A stretch of DNA of 44,840 nt from a virus, in UHGV virus genome UHGV-0716684, one strand, 5' to 3'. Under the pieces are notes generated by a model that saw only the letters and a list, made by a program, of their open reading frames with translations, made no database searches and was not told the DNA's origin. Position 1 is the first letter of the stretch; each line of letters opens with the position of its first letter. The translations under genes were made by a program, and so were the position numbers. Below, in pieces: positions 6,884-20,357 of the stretch.

Positions 6884-6917
6884 TCACTTATCGAAACGAG
6901 ACATAAGGAATTTAGAA

Positions 6918-7136
6918 ATGAACAAAGCGACCGCAAGCGTAGTTTCCGCAATCAAAGAAGTTTACGGCATCGATATCTCAGAGCGCGTAATTATCGGGAA
7001 CAAGCGCAACTTCTTTACGTTCGACACCGACGGAATGGATGAAAATGATTTTGTTAACGTACAACGTTTCGCTAACGGTAAAGGACTTCGTAACGAGCCA
7101 GCGGGTTACAAGAAATTTGCTATCTACTTTAAATAA
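6918..7136 (+). CDS. hypothetical protein
   Basis: 72 aa ORF; AGGAA upstream. Confidence 0.5.
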   Translation: MNKATASVVSAIKEVYGIDISERVIIGNKRNFFTFDTDGMDENDFVNVQRFANGKGLRNEPAGYKKFAIYFK

Positions 7137-13508: not shown

Positions 13509-14021
13509 ATGAAGCTGAAACTCAAGCAGCCATCACCAGAGGTGGTGCAAGCTGCACATGAAGAAGCTGTTAGCGCAAACCGTCGCCGTAAACGACCGCG
13601 CGGTAAACAGAGCCTTTATCAATCATCCCGTAATTCCGCCGCGTTGTGGGACCCGGACTATTGTGACGAATTGATTCGTTTCTTCGACCGCACGTCGTGG
13701 GAGGCTATGCCGACCGGTGCGCACGGAGACTACAAAGCAGTCATTGCGGATAAACCGCCATCACTGGCTCGCTTCGCCTTACACATCGGTGTCACTATCC
13801 CGATTATTAAGCTGTGGCTGCGCGAGATTCCCTCATTTGCAGAAGCCTATGAAACGGCACAGGCGCTGGAAGAGGCGTATTTCACTGAGAATGGGGCCGC
13901 CGGTATCTCTGCTACGTTCGCCGCCGCTAAGCTGGGGCTGAATAAAACAGTTGTCGCCGAAGAAGTACGCGACGAGCCAATCAGTGAAGTAACAATTAAG
14001 GTGGTGTCCGGTGAACGTTAA
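13509..14021 (+). CDS. terminase small subunit
   Basis: HTH region SLARFALHIGVTIPIIKLWLREIPSFAEAYE typical of small terminase subunits; directly upstream of and overlapping the large subunit. Confidence 0.65.
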   Translation: MKLKLKQPSPEVVQAAHEEAVSANRRRKRPRGKQSLYQSSRNSAALWDPDYCDELIRFFDRTSWEAMPTGAHGDYKAVIADKPPSLARFALHIGVTIPIIKLWLREIPSFAEAYETAQALEEAYFTENGAAGISATFAAAKLGLNKTVVAEEVRDEPISEVTIKVVSGER

Positions 14022-15282
14022 TATCACGGCAACGGAACCTCAAGGCGCATTTCTTGGGATGCATTGCAAGTTCCCTGCGTTCGTGGCTGGCTTCGGCACC
14101 GGGAAATCAGAGGTTATGTGTAACTCCGCGCTACTGGACAGCATGGAGGGTGGCAGCGATTCTATCATCGCCATGTATGAGCCTACTTATGACCTGGTAC
14201 GCCTTATCCTTGCGCCCCGTATGGAAGAGAAGCTGACGGACTGGGGTATCCGGTACAAATACAATAAGTCCGACAACATAATCTATACGTCATCCGGTCA
14301 ATTTGGGGATTTTGTCCTGCGTACATTAGATAATCCAGCACGAATCGTTGGTTACGAGTCATTTCGTGCAAAAATCGACGAGTTGGATACCCTGAACATG
14401 GAACACGCGGAGCACGCATGGAACAAAGTCATCGCCCGTAACCGTCAGTTGCCGAGGACGTATAAACCTATTACGCCAAAACCTGCTAATACCGTTTCCG
14501 TGTTCACTACGCCGGAAGGATTCCGTTTCGTGCATGACCGCTGGGTTGTTAAAAAGAATCCTGGTTACGAGATGATTCAGGCGTCCACCCTGTCTAACCC
14601 GTTCCTGCCAGAAGATTATGTGCAGTCCTTACGAGATACCTACCCCGGGCAGTTGATTGATGCCTACATCAACGGCGAGTTCGTAAACCTCACGGCTGGG
14701 ACGGTCTACTACGCTTACGACCGCAGGAAAAACAGCAGTCGCGAAACAATCAAGCCTGGTGAGACTCTGTATATTGGGCAGGATTTTAACGTAGGCCATA
14801 TGGCGAGCACAGTCTACGTGCAACGCGGAAAGGTGTGGCACGCTGTCGCCGAGTTGGTTGATATGTTCGATACGCCGGATGTAGTGCGAGCCATAACGGA
14901 GCGCTGGAAAAGTAAGGGCCATTATATCGTTATGTACCCGGACGCCAGCGGCAAGAACCGTAAAAGCAACAACGCCAGCACCTCCGACATCGTCCAGCTA
15001 CAGCAGGCCGGTTTCGAAGTACGCGCTAAATCGACAAACCCACCGGTTAAAGACCGCGTATCTGCGATGAATAAGGCGCTTGAATCTGGTATGGTCATGA
15101 TTAACGAACAGGCTTGCCCGGTTACTGCTCGATGCCTGGAGCAGCAAGCCTACGACAAGAACGGCGAACCGGATAAATCAGGTGGTGTGGACCACCAGAA
15201 TGATGGAACCACATACCCTATCGCGTATGAAATGCCGATTCGCAAACCAGTTATTAACGTCCCGGTGACTTTCGCACTTTAA
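14011..15282 (+). CDS. terminase large subunit
   Basis: 423 aa; Walker A GFGTGKS near N-terminus; position before portal. Confidence 0.85.
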   Translation: MNVNITATEPQGAFLGMHCKFPAFVAGFGTGKSEVMCNSALLDSMEGGSDSIIAMYEPTYDLVRLILAPRMEEKLTDWGIRYKYNKSDNIIYTSSGQFGDFVLRTLDNPARIVGYESFRAKIDELDTLNMEHAEHAWNKVIARNRQLPRTYKPITPKPANTVSVFTTPEGFRFVHDRWVVKKNPGYEMIQASTLSNPFLPEDYVQSLRDTYPGQLIDAYINGEFVNLTAGTVYYAYDRRKNSSRETIKPGETLYIGQDFNVGHMASTVYVQRGKVWHAVAELVDMFDTPDVVRAITERWKSKGHYIVMYPDASGKNRKSNNASTSDIVQLQQAGFEVRAKSTNPPVKDRVSAMNKALESGMVMINEQACPVTARCLEQQAYDKNGEPDKSGGVDHQNDGTTYPIAYEMPIRKPVINVPVTFAL

Positions 15283-15294
15283 GAGGATTATTCA

Positions 15295-16770
15295 ATGTTA
15301 ACTATGAACGGTCAGAATCAGGGTGTTAAGACTAAACACCGGGAATGGCTGCATCACTTCAATAAATGGCAGAAGGTACGCCACGCGCTGGAAGGCGACC
15401 TTATCCGTTACCTGCGCAACGTCGGGAAGAACGAACCAGACCCGACCTACGCGGCACAGCGTCAGGAAGAATACGAGAACGGCGCTATCTGCTACAACTT
15501 TACTAAACGTACCCTGGCGGGGATGGTTGGGTCCGTGATGCGCAAAGACCCCGAGCAGATTATCCCGCCTGAACTGGAGTACCTGTTACGTAATGCCGAC
15601 GGCTCCGGTGTTGGTCTGTGGCAGCACGCGCAGGACACGCTGATGGAGATTGACTCGGTGGGCCGTGGTGGGTTGCTGGTTGACGCCCCGGAGACCGCCG
15701 CGGCAACGGCGGCAGAGCAGAACGCGGGGTTATTAAACCCGGTCATCGCTTTCTATACCGCAGAGAACATCATCAACTGGCGACTGACTCGCGTCGGTTC
15801 AGTTAACCGCGTGACGATGGTTGTATTGCGTGAGGTATGGGAATACTCAGAACCGGGCGCAGAGTTCGAAACAAAGTTCGGTGAGCAATACCGCGTTCTC
15901 GATTTGATTGACGGTCGCTACCGTCAGCGCATTTACCGCTTTGACGCAGAAGGTGGCGCACAGGGTGAAGTAATCGAAATCTTCCCGGAACTCGGCGAAC
16001 AGTTACGTGGCAAAATCCCGTTCACGTTCATTGGTGCAAGCAACAACGACGCTACTATCGACGATGCGCCTTTGCTGCCGTTGGCTGAGCTTAATATCGG
16101 ACATTTCCGTAACAGCGCAGACAATGAGGAATCCAGCTTCGTTGTAGGCCAGCCAACTCTGTTCATCGCCCCCGGTGAGAACATGAGCATGGAACAGTGG
16201 AAAGAAGCTAACCCTCACGGCGTGCGCATGGGGTCACGTTCAGGCCATAACATCGGCTACGGCGGCAATGCATTTCTTGTTCAGGCAGGAGAGAACAACC
16301 TCGCCAAACAGAATATGCTGGATAAAGAGAATCAGGCCATTCAGATTGGCGCGCAGCTTATCACCCCGACGCAGCAAATCACCGCCGAATCCGCCCGCCT
16401 GCAACGCGGCGCCGATACGTCAGTCATGGCAACAATCGCGCGTAACGTAAGCATGGCGTATACCGATGCATTGCGCTGGGTAGCGGCGATGCTAGGGTTG
16501 CGCGAAGACACAGAGATTGAATTCAAGCTGAACATGGAGTTCTTCCTACAACCGATGACAGCTCAGGACCGCGCCCAGTGGATGGCAGACATTAACGCTG
16601 GCTTGCTGCCCGCCACCGCTTACTATGCTGCGTTGCGCAAGGCGGGTGTAACTGACTGGAAGGATGAAGACATTCAGAACGCTATCGAGGATGCACCATT
16701 GCCGTTGGGGGCCGTTACTCAGGTGACGGGGGAGATTCCGCAGTCGGCGCAGCAGCAACAGCAGGAGTAA
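15295..16770 (+). CDS. portal protein
   Basis: 491 aa ORF directly after terminase large subunit; size and position typical. Confidence 0.75.
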   Translation: MLTMNGQNQGVKTKHREWLHHFNKWQKVRHALEGDLIRYLRNVGKNEPDPTYAAQRQEEYENGAICYNFTKRTLAGMVGSVMRKDPEQIIPPELEYLLRNADGSGVGLWQHAQDTLMEIDSVGRGGLLVDAPETAAATAAEQNAGLLNPVIAFYTAENIINWRLTRVGSVNRVTMVVLREVWEYSEPGAEFETKFGEQYRVLDLIDGRYRQRIYRFDAEGGAQGEVIEIFPELGEQLRGKIPFTFIGASNNDATIDDAPLLPLAELNIGHFRNSADNEESSFVVGQPTLFIAPGENMSMEQWKEANPHGVRMGSRSGHNIGYGGNAFLVQAGENNLAKQNMLDKENQAIQIGAQLITPTQQITAESARLQRGADTSVMATIARNVSMAYTDALRWVAAMLGLREDTEIEFKLNMEFFLQPMTAQDRAQWMADINAGLLPATAYYAALRKAGVTDWKDEDIQNAIEDAPLPLGAVTQVTGEIPQSAQQQQQE

Positions 16771-16799
16771 ATATTAAGGCCCCTATTGGGGCCTTAATC

Positions 16800-18212
16800 T
16801 CACTTATTCCATACCAATTTCTCTTGTCCGCTATCCCATATGCGGGATACACCTTCCGCAGCGTACCATTCCGACTGTGTAAGCCCCTCTGGCGCTTTGT
16901 TCCATTTTTGCCGTGATTCTGTTTTAGTCGCATTGTTTACGACGATGCGGAATCCACATCTCACAGAAGCCTTTTTAAACCCCGCTGATAGGTATGATTC
17001 TCCGGTAAATAAATCCCGGTCAGTGTAGGTAAAACCGTCGGTGATGCTATAACGGCGCACGGCATAGGCCCATAGCTTCGACAGCCCGCCTACCACCGAA
17101 CACGACGTAGCGTACCGCACAAGCTCCCATTCACCTTTTCTACACGTCAGCGTCATTACCGCAACAATCTTTTCTTCATAAACGAGGCTGATATACCTCG
17201 TCGAGTTACGGAATCCTTGAATGTGGTTCTCCTCCAGGAAACGCTCTGCACATATTTTGTTAATCTCTTTTACATGGCATTTGCGGGCGAAAACTCGCAA
17301 AGAAGAGACGCCGACGGAATGGCCGATTATTTTCTTTATTATTTCTTTTTTATGCAGCCATAGCTCATCCCTTATTGACAGGAGCCGGAACCCTCTTTCC
17401 TCAACGGCGACTCTTTTCTCCATGTGATACTTTCTCCCCTTCCCGGCAGCTTCACTGTGCCAGTACAGGCCGTTTATTTCTATCGCCAGATTATGTTGCG
17501 GTATTAAAATATCTATCTCTCTTGGGTGGATAAGACTTCTATCATTCCGATGATATTCCACCCCCATGCTATCGAGAAATTCACAGACTTCATCCTCCAC
17601 TTTACTACGCCCGAACGACGCGCACCGCGGGCACCCTCTACCCTGAAAAATGTTACCAAGCGTAGAGGCCCATTCATGGCCTTTTTGACACCTCAGTGTC
17701 GATGGCGCACGGCAGATATCCCCTGAATAAGACACCAGTTCAAAACCAGTGCCGCGTAACCTTTCCTCTATTTCTCCGATCTCGAGCCTTTTTCTGTTAG
17801 TGCTGCAATTCGGGCAATGACTTTTACCCCTTAAAATGTCGCTGCCGGTAGCGGACCAGACGAACCCGCATTTACATCTGAACGTTGATTTCCCACTTAC
17901 AGCACCTGCGTAATTAAGGCATTCAACCCCATTAGGCCACTCTGTTACTTTCGCCCGTTTTTCCGCAGCGTAGCATTGGGGGCAACCATGACCGTTTAGG
18001 ACGGTATTGGCCTTTGTCTCCCACACATGGCCACTACGGCAGCGGAATTTAGACTTAAGTTTAGAGTGGCCTGCATACTCAATTACTACTATACCCCGTG
18101 ACGCCAGTCTCAGGTTTACATCTTCTTCAGTTAAACGTCTGGACCCCATTAAAATACCCTCCGCTTCTTCTAGTATAAAGATTGTGTATATACATGTACC
18201 ACAGCAAGACAT
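16800..18212 (-). CDS. putative multi-domain homing-type endonuclease (zinc-ribbon repeats plus PD-(D/E)XK Vsr/DUF559-like nuclease motif)
   Basis: Repeated C..GH.W...G.GCP.C units; motif EIDILIPQHNLAIEINGLYWHSE; opposite strand inside the packaging/head module. Confidence 0.55.
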   Translation of the reverse strand: MSCCGTCIYTIFILEEAEGILMGSRRLTEEDVNLRLASRGIVVIEYAGHSKLKSKFRCRSGHVWETKANTVLNGHGCPQCYAAEKRAKVTEWPNGVECLNYAGAVSGKSTFRCKCGFVWSATGSDILRGKSHCPNCSTNRKRLEIGEIEERLRGTGFELVSYSGDICRAPSTLRCQKGHEWASTLGNIFQGRGCPRCASFGRSKVEDEVCEFLDSMGVEYHRNDRSLIHPREIDILIPQHNLAIEINGLYWHSEAAGKGRKYHMEKRVAVEERGFRLLSIRDELWLHKKEIIKKIIGHSVGVSSLRVFARKCHVKEINKICAERFLEENHIQGFRNSTRYISLVYEEKIVAVMTLTCRKGEWELVRYATSCSVVGGLSKLWAYAVRRYSITDGFTYTDRDLFTGESYLSAGFKKASVRCGFRIVVNNATKTESRQKWNKAPEGLTQSEWYAAEGVSRIWDSGQEKLVWNK

Positions 18213-18252
18213 CGCACCGCAATAAGAAAAAATTCCCTGAGATATTATTTTT

Positions 18253-19329
18253 ATGCGTTACACTGTCGATACTACAGGAGGGCTTATGAGCTTACTTACA
18301 TCTCTAATTAGCCACCAGATATGGCTGCAACGTACTGCATCCGGTGAGGTGAAAGACCTAGCACCGTTCATTCAGGAGATGCGGGACGAAATCAAACGGC
18401 AGGTGCTGTTATTCGGCGATGATGGCCGCAGCACCGCCCGGCTGAATAAACTGTTACGCGACCTTGAAGAAGCACTGGCTGGACTTACAGTTGACTGGCA
18501 AACAAAGCTGACAGAAGACCTTAAGGAACTGGCGGCATATGAGGCTGAGTGGAACGTAAAGACACTTACCACCAACGTTAACGCGGAATTTGTTACACCT
18601 ACCGCCGAGCAGGTGTGGGCCGCTGCCGAGTTTCAACCTCTGTCGCTAAGTGACAAGCCCGTTGACTTCACCAAGCTGATGTCAGGCTGGGGTGAAGCGG
18701 AGGTCGCGCGCCTTGTAACTGGCGTTAAGATGGGCTTTGTGCAAGGCCAAACCACACGGCAGATTGTTAAAGAAGTAGTTGGTAAAGGCGGCCTGGCTGA
18801 CGTATCAGAGAAACACGCTGCTACAGTAATCCGCACCGCGCTGTCCCACGTGTCCAACGAAGCCCGTAATGAGACGTACCGCCAGAACGACGACATTATC
18901 GAGAAATATGAGTGGGTGTCTACTCTTGATTCTAGGACCTCAGCCGTTTGCAAGGCCAGAGATGGGATGACGTGGGAAATCGGTAAAGGGCCGATGCCCC
19001 CCGCCCATCCGAACTGCCGGTCGTGCACGGCTCCGGTAATCAGTTCGGAGTTCGACTTCCTGGATAAAGGCGCAAAACGCGCGGCTAAGGGTGCGGACGG
19101 AGGTACTCAGGTAAGCGCAGACACCACTTACTACGAGTTCCTGAAACAACAACCGGCATGGTTTCAGGACCAGGCTCTAGGCCCGGTGCGGGGTAAGATT
19201 TTCCGTAACAGCGGTATATCGCCGGAAGAGTTTCGCGTAATATCTGTAGATGGTTTCGGGAATCCGCTCACGCTTAAGCAGATGGCGGAACTCGATAAAC
19301 GTGTTGCTGATTATCTGAAAGGGGAATAA
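18253..19329 (+). CDS. head morphogenesis protein (SPP1 gp7 / Mu F-like minor head protein)
   Basis: 358 aa; conserved PMPPAHPNCRSC region; position after portal. Confidence 0.75.
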   Translation: MRYTVDTTGGLMSLLTSLISHQIWLQRTASGEVKDLAPFIQEMRDEIKRQVLLFGDDGRSTARLNKLLRDLEEALAGLTVDWQTKLTEDLKELAAYEAEWNVKTLTTNVNAEFVTPTAEQVWAAAEFQPLSLSDKPVDFTKLMSGWGEAEVARLVTGVKMGFVQGQTTRQIVKEVVGKGGLADVSEKHAATVIRTALSHVSNEARNETYRQNDDIIEKYEWVSTLDSRTSAVCKARDGMTWEIGKGPMPPAHPNCRSCTAPVISSEFDFLDKGAKRAAKGADGGTQVSADTTYYEFLKQQPAWFQDQALGPVRGKIFRNSGISPEEFRVISVDGFGNPLTLKQMAELDKRVADYLKGE

Positions 19330-19790
19330 TGATGGGCTTTTTCAAAGTAACTGATGTACCGTCGCGTCGCGTAGTCCAGTACGCCCGTGTGCCTGGCTCC
19401 GGCGAGAACGTGGTATTTATTGAAGATGAAAGTGTACTGGGTGCGCCCGTAGACGATATGCCGTTTGCAGATAAAACCGGTATTGCGCTACCGGCGGCGG
19501 GCATGCTTTATGAGATTCAGTACCTGGCGGATGCTGGTGATGTGTATTTCTCCGTACAACCGCAGGACGCTGAACTGGCAGACGGCAGCGCAAATATCGC
19601 TGTCGAAGTTAAGGCGGGCAAAGCACCATATGCGCTGACCTGGTACAAAGACGGGAAGGAAGTGGTTAACGCCCCGGAAGAGGCTTTGTCTCTTACGGTT
19701 AATTCTGTTGGGGAATACTTCGTTAAAGTTACTGACGCCGATGGTGTAGAGGCTATGAGTAAAGCGGCGAAAGTTACTAAGCCAGAATGA
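19329..19790 (+). CDS. hypothetical head-associated protein with Ig-like C-terminal segment
   Basis: 153 aa; LTWYKDGKEV...GEYFVKVTD pattern reminiscent of Ig-like domains. Confidence 0.45.
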   Translation: MMGFFKVTDVPSRRVVQYARVPGSGENVVFIEDESVLGAPVDDMPFADKTGIALPAAGMLYEIQYLADAGDVYFSVQPQDAELADGSANIAVEVKAGKAPYALTWYKDGKEVVNAPEEALSLTVNSVGEYFVKVTDADGVEAMSKAAKVTKPE

Positions 19791-19793
19791 TAT

Positions 19794-19820
19794 AAGGCCC
19801 CGAAAGGGGCCTTAATTTTA
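19794..19820. terminator. conserved terminator hairpin aaggccccgaaaggggcctt
   Basis: Perfect 8 bp stem, GAAA loop, T-rich flank; same hairpin at 27155 and 39396. Confidence 0.6.
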
Positions 19821-20357
19821 ATAAGCTAACCAAGAACCTCTTTCTGTGAACATCAATTTATTTCCTTTTAAGAGATTCAGAACCGCAGGGATAACTTGTA
19901 TGTTTTCTGCGACGTGCAGCCCTGAGACAGTTTTAGCCCGCAACGGCAGCATGTGGTCGATATGCCATAAGAAACCTGTTTCACCCGCTCGCAGTTGACA
20001 TAGCTCCTGCGCTTCTTCGAATACTAATAGGTCAAATTCATCATTCCTGATGTTTATACTCCTGGCTCTTTTTGCCGTTTTATACTTCAACCTTTGGGCT
20101 TTCCTGGCGGTTTTGTTTTTCTTACGGTACTCCGCATCAATTTCGGCTAATCGGTCTTTATTTTCTTGCCTCCATTTTGCGTTTTTAGCCGCCCAAGAAA
20201 CAGCGTTTCGTTCTCGGTACGATTTTTGTATCTCTTTAGTGCACTCATAGCACCCGGTGCGAACATGCCTTTTCGCAACATGCCCGCGTTTACACGGTTT
20301 GCCAGTGAAGTAATAATCATCCCCCGCGGCTATGGCTTCTGAACGCTTAGTGAGCAT
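19818..20357 (-). CDS. HNH-type endonuclease
   Basis: 179 aa; CKRGH..C.EC zinc-binding N-terminus and WHIDHMLPL...N HNH-like core. Confidence 0.6.
   Translation of the reverse strand: MLTKRSEAIAAGDDYYFTGKPCKRGHVAKRHVRTGCYECTKEIQKSYRERNAVSWAAKNAKWRQENKDRLAEIDAEYRKKNKTARKAQRLKYKTAKRARSINIRNDEFDLLVFEEAQELCQLRAGETGFLWHIDHMLPLRAKTVSGLHVAENIQVIPAVLNLLKGNKLMFTERGSWLAY

Follow-up and report, generated by a model that had tools for sequence, protein, structure and literature searches.

A probable Hef-like homing endonuclease gene between the portal and Mu-F-like head-morphogenesis genes of a Kagunavirus coliphage

The endonuclease gene and its neighbourhood

The subject of this work is a minus-strand gene in the virus genome UHGV-0716684, a stretch of 44,840 nucleotides (nt) that was analysed at its full length and is referred to below as the window. 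The structural region of the window matches 234 phage records, the best being those of Escherichia phages at 90–95% identity, and we conclude from these matches that the window is the whole or most of a Kagunavirus (Guernseyvirinae) coliphage genome. A first-pass annotation, made by a model from the sequence alone, had noticed a large endonuclease gene lying on the opposite strand between a portal gene and a head-morphogenesis gene. This arrangement was borne out: the open reading frame (ORF) 16800..18212 on the minus strand is unbroken and is flanked by plus-strand genes matching phrog_145 and phrog_241, with the large terminase (TerL) gene further upstream and a Hoc-like decoration gene downstream. 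The ORF contains 470 codons counted from the first ATG, and the odds of as many stop-free codons arising by chance are about (61/64)^470, or roughly 1e-10 by our own estimate. The features of the locus are listed below; residues are numbered throughout according to the 470-amino-acid (aa) form of the protein.

15295..16770, plus strand: portal gene (phrog_145, E 3.5e-149; Pfam DUF4055)
16776..16795, no strand assigned: GC-rich hairpin AAGGCCCCTATTGGGGCCTT lying between the stop codons of the portal and endonuclease genes, at the left edge of the slot; it follows the portal gene in all compared genomes, occupied or empty
16800..18149, minus strand: coding sequence of the Hef-like homing endonuclease in its most likely form, 449 aa, with the TAA stop at 16800-16802 (basis: ORF, Shine-Dalgarno sequence, homologue P0001, PHROG matches and the ratio of non-synonymous to synonymous substitution rates, dN/dS)
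16803..17312, minus strand: C-terminal Mom-like GNAT-fold domain, residues about 301-470
17313..17603, minus strand: Vsr-like PD-(D/E)XK ('EDxHD'-type) nuclease domain, residues about 204-300
17604..18131, minus strand: three tandem treble-clef zinc-ribbon modules, residues 28-85, 86-142 and 143-203 (cysteine motifs, DUF4379)
18150..18212, minus strand: in-frame upstream extension of 21 codons, MSCCGTCIYTIFILEEAEGIL; no Shine-Dalgarno sequence precedes ATG 18212, and M22 is the starting point of homologues and of the PHROG alignment
18242..18285, no strand assigned: right junction of the slot, ~44 bp, common to occupied alleles with different cargo
18286..19329, plus strand: Mu-F-like (MuF) head-morphogenesis gene (phrog_241, E 5.4e-152), with the likely start ATGAGC at 18286 and not at 18253

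The product was initially described as 470 aa long. The 470-codon ORF is real, but the true start is probably the internal ATG at 18149 (M22) and the product accordingly 449 aa, because a Shine-Dalgarno sequence GGAGGG (18157-18162) stands 7 nt before this ATG, the homologue P0001, which is 96% identical and occupies the same slot, is called as 449 aa, and the PHROG alignment of the window protein begins at residue 23. The 21-codon extension is probably untranslated. The alignment of the protein to its homologues is full-length and free of frameshifts. The only other copy of the gene that was found lies on the 44.5-kb Logan contig SRR27151669_359 (L003), in the same slot and orientation (96% identity in aa and 92.5% in nt). 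Between these two copies the dN/dS is 0.07 and the proportion of non-synonymous differences (pN) is low in all three domains; the gene is therefore functional. A second copy (paralogue) of the endonuclease was sought elsewhere in the window and none was found.

Domain architecture and relation to Hef

The N-terminal 180 residues of the protein form a zinc-ribbon array which is predicted to be a modular DNA-binding region. Its units lie at C58-C80, C113-C136 and C175-C197 and follow the pattern C-x3-H/C-x-C ... C-x2-C; Pfam DUF4379 matches the window protein at 8e-13, and DUF723 is seen in its relatives. The count of at least four such units in the first-pass annotation was too high, as only these three are present. 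The N-terminal MSCCGTC was considered as a further zinc site, but this idea was dropped, since the motif stands upstream of the likely start, is without a partner CxxC and is missing from the homologues. The 120 best homologues have between 1 and 7 zinc ribbons each. With the window protein as reference, median identity rises from 22% for the zinc-ribbon region to 42% for the nuclease and 46% for the Mom-like domain, so that the ribbons are the least and the Mom-like domain the most conserved region. These counts and identities lead us to describe the family as a constant core of nuclease and Mom-like domain behind a variable DNA-binding front.

An alignment of 60 homologous sequences (A3) served both for the AlphaFold2 model of the protein, which has a mean predicted local distance difference test score (pLDDT) of 89, and for the residue conservation counts of the nuclease domain. 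The central domain matches the sequence of the catalytic domain from I-Bth0305I (PDB 3r3p) with E 0.0015 (HMMER), and its residues E206/D234/N247/H252 map onto E170/D196/N208/H213 of I-Bth0305I and E25/D51/H64/H69 of Vsr. In the HMMER alignment alanines of the crystal sequence stand opposite D234 and H252, because the crystallised I-Bth0305I construct carries the D196A and H213A substitutions. E245 occupies the additional conserved acidic position described by Taylor et al. (PMC3239194). E206, D234, E245 and H252 occur without exception (60/60 homologues) and N247 with one (59/60). The Vsr-like PD-(D/E)XK nuclease recognised at the outset is thus confirmed, domain searches agreeing on a nuclease with family-invariant catalytic residues. 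The NCBIfam search returned only a sub-threshold Vsr match (19.5 bits against a cut-off of 97.85 for TIGR00632).

The view that the architecture is neither HNH nor GIY-YIG holds as well: no Pfam family of either type was found in the window protein (E<=0.1) or among the 25 families shown for the 60 homologues. This is so despite the 'HNH endonuclease' label of phrog_559, the best PHROG match. We dropped this label, as an HNH domain is undetectable in the window protein and in the listed Pfam families of the 60 homologues; it is a misnomer for such an architecture, and wrong annotations are likely to spread from it.

The C-terminal part of about 170 aa had been noted as an uncharacterised domain. 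The domain exists and no Pfam model matches it, but it could be identified by structure and profile comparison. In the Foldseek search its top PDB match is the Mom protein of phage Mu (8bv8, E 2e-6), with ordinary acetyltransferases ranking below, so that by the model this region has a GNAT fold for which Mom is the best structural match among GNATs. Profile-profile comparison (hhalign) of the domain with Mom and Mom homologues gave Prob 85% and E 5.9e-6 over 127 columns. When the C-terminal 189 aa were scanned against Pfam by themselves, there was no Mom match at E<=10 and only a chance match to RAB3A-like_C (E 0.08). The Pfam family Mom (PF25680, gathering score 27.1) matches the homologous domain in two relatives, P0042 (32.7 bits) and P0120 (29.2 bits), and no other GNAT-type family is among the 25 Pfam families listed for the 60 homologues. 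In view of the missing PF25680 match here, the matches in these two relatives and the hhalign result, the domain appears to be a distant relative of Mom and not a Pfam-level member of its family.

It was recently reported that Mom moves glycine from Gly-tRNAGly onto N6 of adenine in double-stranded DNA, and that R111, S124 and R151 of Mom are essential while H58, Y59, D149 and Y159 are important (PMC13219725, 2026). In the profile alignment the equivalents of H58, R111, S124, D149 and Y159 are present in the window protein. Across 142 representatives of clusters at 50% identity H58 and R111 are kept in all, Y159 in 141, D149 in 132 and S124, as S/T, in 104. The Y59 position is I in the window protein and I/L/V across the family, and the equivalent of R151 is uncertain, since it aligns either to a gap or to the poorly conserved R378. 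Mom is a 241-aa stand-alone protein, in contrast to the fused domain of the window protein, and the V-x-G-G-x-S-K-L loop of the latter, which is not in Mom, may recall the CoA-binding loop of classical GNATs. The C-terminal domain alone matches 13,400 cluster representatives (50% identity clusters, E<=1e-3) among 1.84 billion, and in almost all of the best 150 of these 13,400 matches it stands at the C-terminus of proteins of 400–1000 aa.

The domain combination, whose novelty had been implied, is in fact the standard Hef-like/EDxHD architecture, annotated in hundreds of phage genomes. The PHROG matches are phrog_559 (E 5.5e-98) and phrog_3339 'homing endonuclease' (E 1.6e-75). Homologues were found by tblastn in 581 phage records of 50,697, many of them annotated 'Hef-like homing endonuclease', and none of these records contains a copy above 60% aa identity; the best matches come from the Salmonella phages Jersey and demigod, whose 'putative Hef-like homing endonuclease' genes reach 44%. 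The family is thus already known and very widespread, and the window copy is, as far as these comparisons go, a new divergent lineage of it.

The prototype of the Hef-like free-standing homing endonucleases, reportedly characterised by experiment, is the Hef protein of the T4-like phage U5 (Sandegren, Nord and Sjoberg 2005). U5 Hef (AY262133.2) aligns with residues 204-442 of the window protein at 33% identity (BLASTP, E 6e-27), the annotated hef gene being matched also by tblastn, and the two proteins share the motifs ARKC, NH-x-QGF, VVGG-x-SKL and RIWD-x-G over about 240 residues. Because both the nuclease and the Mom-like regions align with U5 Hef, we regard the window gene as a divergent new member of the Hef-like ('EDxHD') family. 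Hef-type enzymes were placed in the Vsr-like EDxHD family together with I-Bth0305I by Taylor et al. (PMC3239194). According to passages of PMC3322345 and PMC2988022, U5 Hef is a homing endonuclease that cuts near its own locus, where it replaces mobE between nrdA and nrdB. Like the window gene, U5 hef is free-standing between conserved phage genes, but it lies on the same strand as nrdA and nrdB, whereas the window gene is opposite to its neighbours. U5 Hef is 544 aa long, and in its N-terminal 287 residues the DUF4379 zinc ribbons seen in the window protein are undetectable; at the position equivalent to D149 it has N, while the window protein and Mom have aspartate.

Other known systems were compared with the window protein as well. 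The founder of the EDxHD family, I-Bth0305I (PDB 3r3p; PMC3239194), is intron-encoded, unlike the free-standing window gene, and its C-terminal nuclease stands behind NUMOD/helix-turn-helix DNA-binding motifs, with neither the zinc ribbons nor the Mom-like domain of the window protein. Vsr (PDB 1cw0) is a single-domain host repair enzyme nicking at T:G mismatches, unlike the multi-domain window protein, which scores far under the family cut-offs of both Vsr and DUF559 proteins (3hrl). The Hef-like genes of Guernseyvirinae (Jersey gp03, vB_VIPECOMC04) have the same three-part architecture and lie on the minus strand in the same structural operon. The identity of their products to the window protein is only 44% overall, the zinc ribbons reaching ~32% and the Mom-like domain 57%; they occupy the slot between TerL and portal, and the window gene that between portal and MuF.

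The fusions of Mom-like domains with restriction endonucleases (Mom-REase fusions) in jumbo phages (PMC7824862, Iyer et al. 2021) apparently belong to the same family. PA5oct-like phages carry 5 copies that match the nuclease and Mom-like region (36% identity, E 6e-29) and bear the GenBank label homing endonuclease, while 'five momylating enzymes' are counted in PA5oct in that comparative-genomics paper, which reads the fusions as restriction-modification-like conflict systems and mentions homing endonucleases 0 times. In the papers searched, the work on homing endonucleases and the 'Mom-REase' paper make no mention of one another. One GenBank record labels a homologue 'putative nuclease/acetyltransferase protein'; no paper in the literature searched pairs 'Hef-like' with 'acetyltransferase'.

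The portal/MuF slot and genetic exchange around it

The slot occupied by the gene is polymorphic among related phages. At its left edge stands the hairpin 16776-16795, a putative bidirectional terminator for both convergent genes; the promoter/terminator scan did not list it. The 3' end of the portal gene, coding for its C-terminal residues, differs between occupied and empty alleles. At the right edge, the junction sequence is 95% identical to that of the phages UTEC10 and phiWAO78-1 and 88% identical to that of Sciku, and it is different in the empty alleles. It includes a promoter-like TCGACA-16 nt-TAATAT on the minus strand (18269..18242), a 9/12 match. Relatives annotate a 1044-bp MuF gene from the ATG homologous to 18286 (ATGAGCTTACTT), with GGAGGG ahead of it. 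The mechanically called MuF ORF begins at 18253, and its 11 surplus codons fall in the right-junction sequence of the slot.

In three measured alleles (vB_VIPECOTH07, BUCT825 and vB_VIPECOMC04) the empty slot is 55–58 bp long from the hairpin to the MuF ATG, and the record span is consistent with an empty slot in K1G and in about 20 of 30 sampled relatives. The window gene is missing from 200+ related Guernseyvirinae genomes. In the absence of close copies from the phage records and with most Kagunavirus junctions empty, the gene is by no means universal in relatives. Its next-closest paralogues (44–47%) lie elsewhere: Jersey, VIPECOMC04 and L012 have theirs between TerL and portal, L013 behind the major capsid gene.

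Other relatives have unrelated cargo of about 0.6–0.9 kb in the same slot. In UTEC10 (L002 2043-2633) these are two small minus-strand ORFs within 590 bp; in phiWAO78-1 (L008 1483-2362) 879 bp with one annotated 64-aa ORF; and in Sciku (L009 1504-2025) a 173-aa minus-strand ORF annotated 'DNA polymerase III sliding clamp'. An ORF of ~570 bp with the sliding-clamp annotation occupies the slot in Sciku and others, and an HNH gene does so in one relative. Remnants of the window gene were sought in UTEC10, phiWAO78-1, Sciku and the empty alleles and none were found, only the 42–44 bp right junction being common. In these three phages the cargo is on the minus strand, between the same hairpin and the same right junction. 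The portal/MuF slot has the appearance of a hotspot for cassette exchange, with one leftward promoter in common.

In comparison with BUCT825, the block 18285-19813 containing the MuF and Hoc-like genes shows 99.15% identity. The window endonuclease gene forms its left boundary and another nuclease ORF of the minus strand its right one, while the TerL 3'/portal segment left of the gene is 83.7% and the segment right of the block 93.8% identical. These edges resemble the pattern described under the title 'Nuclease genes occupy boundaries of genetic exchange between bacteriophages' (PMC10448857). The ORF at the right edge is the following.

19818..20357, minus strand: second nuclease ORF, 179 aa, between the Hoc-like gene and the next structural gene (phrog_1035 'endonuclease VII', E 8.5e-32)

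An HNH-like HIDHMLPL...N...N motif occurs in this ORF together with an N-terminal C-x3-H...C-x2-C unit. The ORF is found in UTEC10 and LSPA1 and missing in vB_VIPECOTH07 and BUCT825, and is probably another free-standing homing endonuclease.

A co-conversion signature was also looked for between the window and the L003 contig and none was found, the divergence of the flanks being comparable to that of the gene.

Further differences were seen in the surroundings. In the phages fEg-Eco06 and vB-Eco-KMB36 of Escherichia the MuF gene is annotated with an intein, a further mobile element in the same neighbourhood. The L003 contig has a 74-aa ORF (6895-7119) in its TerL/portal slot, which is empty (12 bp) in the window. 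The TerL gene of the window (13910-15282) is mostly ~46–70% identical to that of BUCT825, though the sequence just upstream is ~99–100% identical, and we regard this difference as an allelic replacement of the terminase. Its part 14440-15231, which is the extent of the compared locus, is 99–100% identical to vB_VIPECOTH07, and the TerL protein is split by PHROG between phrog_38319 and phrog_10250.

Homing, modification and alternative readings

The gene belongs to the Hef-like family, it is present or absent at a fixed site in related genomes, and it is under purifying selection. Under these conditions we consider it highly probable that it is an intact free-standing Hef-like (Vsr-like EDxHD) homing endonuclease, carried as a self-contained minus-strand cassette in the Kagunavirus portal/MuF slot. 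The suggestion of the first-pass annotation that a free-standing homing endonuclease had invaded the structural operon is thus supported by the homology to U5 Hef and by the presence/absence comparison, homing itself being a conclusion drawn from them. In a mixed infection the variable zinc-ribbon array would bind DNA and position the enzyme, and the Vsr-like domain would then cut the gene-less allele at or near the portal/MuF junction, probably as a dimer leaving short 5' overhangs by analogy with I-Bth0305I. Recombinational repair from the gene-bearing genome would copy the cassette together with flanking sequence, which fits the position of the gene exactly at the edge of a block of sequence exchange. 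Roughly 40 bp of the empty allele, between the hairpin and the MuF start codon, are replaced in the gene-bearing allele, and this replacement may spare the latter from cleavage (self-immunity). The candidate cleavage target would accordingly comprise the ~40 bp specific to empty alleles and the adjoining portal 3' and MuF 5' sequence.

Several observations weigh against this homing model. That the window protein cleaves DNA, at which site, and that it homes are things we infer. Within the nuclease domain the counterpart of I-Bth0305I D222 (Vsr D97) cannot be placed unambiguously, and the aspartate of the family motif 'RED-x-W', kept in 56/60 homologues, is affected in the window protein and its close homologue by a swap of D and E (RDELW). 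The promoter-like site in the right junction is no better than chance, and the sites of the promoter/terminator scan did not rise above those in shuffled sequence. The window and BUCT825 are mosaic throughout the whole genome; therefore the block boundary beside the gene is suggestive only and could be a coincidence. Between the window and L003 the flanks are ~76–96% identical in 200-bp intervals as against 92.5% for the gene, i.e. about as diverged as the gene itself, and so give no direct trace of a recent transfer between the two. Finally, a plain homing model leaves the conserved Mom-like active-site residues unexplained.

Many free-standing homing genes decay after fixation, and both this tendency and the RDELW replacement of a near-invariant aspartate might suggest that the gene is an inactive relic of a past invasion which has lost DNA cutting. 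Such a reading is hardly probable in view of the full-length, frameshift-free alignment, the presence of every other invariant residue and the dN/dS of 0.07 in comparison with the other copy, which has the same RDELW and a different nucleotide at 7.5% of positions. We find it just as improbable that the nuclease has been domesticated and, no longer mobile, serves the phage in DNA packaging or processing beside the terminase and portal or as a regulator. The position in the packaging/head module beside TerL and portal and the strong purifying selection would suit such a role, but the packaging and head genes are the same in the closest relatives, which lack this gene (for example BUCT825, 99% identical immediately downstream), the gene lies on the opposite strand with its own signals, and its homologues occur in many unrelated genomic contexts.

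A somewhat better case, though still an unlikely one, can be made for a one-polypeptide restriction-modification-like weapon, in which the Mom-like domain modifies the phage adenines and the nuclease degrades unmodified host or competitor DNA. Exactly this role is predicted for the Mom-REase fusions in PMC7824862, and it would agree with the Mom-like fold, with the widely retained equivalents of the Mom active-site residues, with the purifying selection on a domain that is the most conserved part of the protein, and with the ability of Mom to modify double-stranded DNA directly using Gly-tRNAGly (PMC13219725). The gene is, however, sporadic and confined to a fixed intergenic slot that holds other cargo in relatives, and related phages have 5–12 paralogues per genome, which is typical of selfish homing genes and needless for a genome-wide modifier. 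The variability of the zinc-ribbon arrays points to binding at specific targets, and the prototype Hef is reported, in the passages of PMC3322345 and PMC2988022 mentioned above, to be a homing endonuclease cutting near its own locus. It is because of the sporadic, slot-specific and multi-copy distribution, and because U5 Hef lacks the D149-equivalent aspartate, that we disfavour this explanation relative to a homing endonuclease.

For the homing endonuclease, then, the role of the Mom-like domain has to be considered separately. As the domain is the most conserved in the family, its role should be constant and independent of the target; it could be base-modifying catalysis, base-flipping DNA binding or dimerisation. 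We know of no Hef-like protein with modification activity. It may nevertheless be proposed, as a speculative extension that we hold to be rather improbable, that Hef-like enzymes are bifunctional: a catalytically active Mom-like domain would covalently modify adenine at the site which the enzyme itself recognises or close to it, with an aminoacyl-tRNA or acyl-CoA donor, and so mark the gene-bearing genome as immune, while unmodified gene-less genomes would be cut and converted.

From the point of view of phage evolution, the window gene appears to be an ordinary free-standing homing endonuclease that shapes the mosaicism of a phage structural operon, and it represents a previously unrecorded lineage and target slot (portal/MuF) in Kagunavirus, a genus that phage-therapy collections make use of. 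Of wider interest is the C-terminal domain, since this most conserved part of the family is a relative of the adenine-modifying Mom protein of phage Mu. If true, the bifunctional reading would make these proteins single-polypeptide hybrids of a homing endonuclease and a restriction-modification system, and would reconcile the literature on the 'Hef-like homing endonuclease' with that on the 'momylating enzyme fused to an REase'. Modification of DNA by Hef-like enzymes, should it take place, could account for the sparing of their own genomes by free-standing homing endonucleases.

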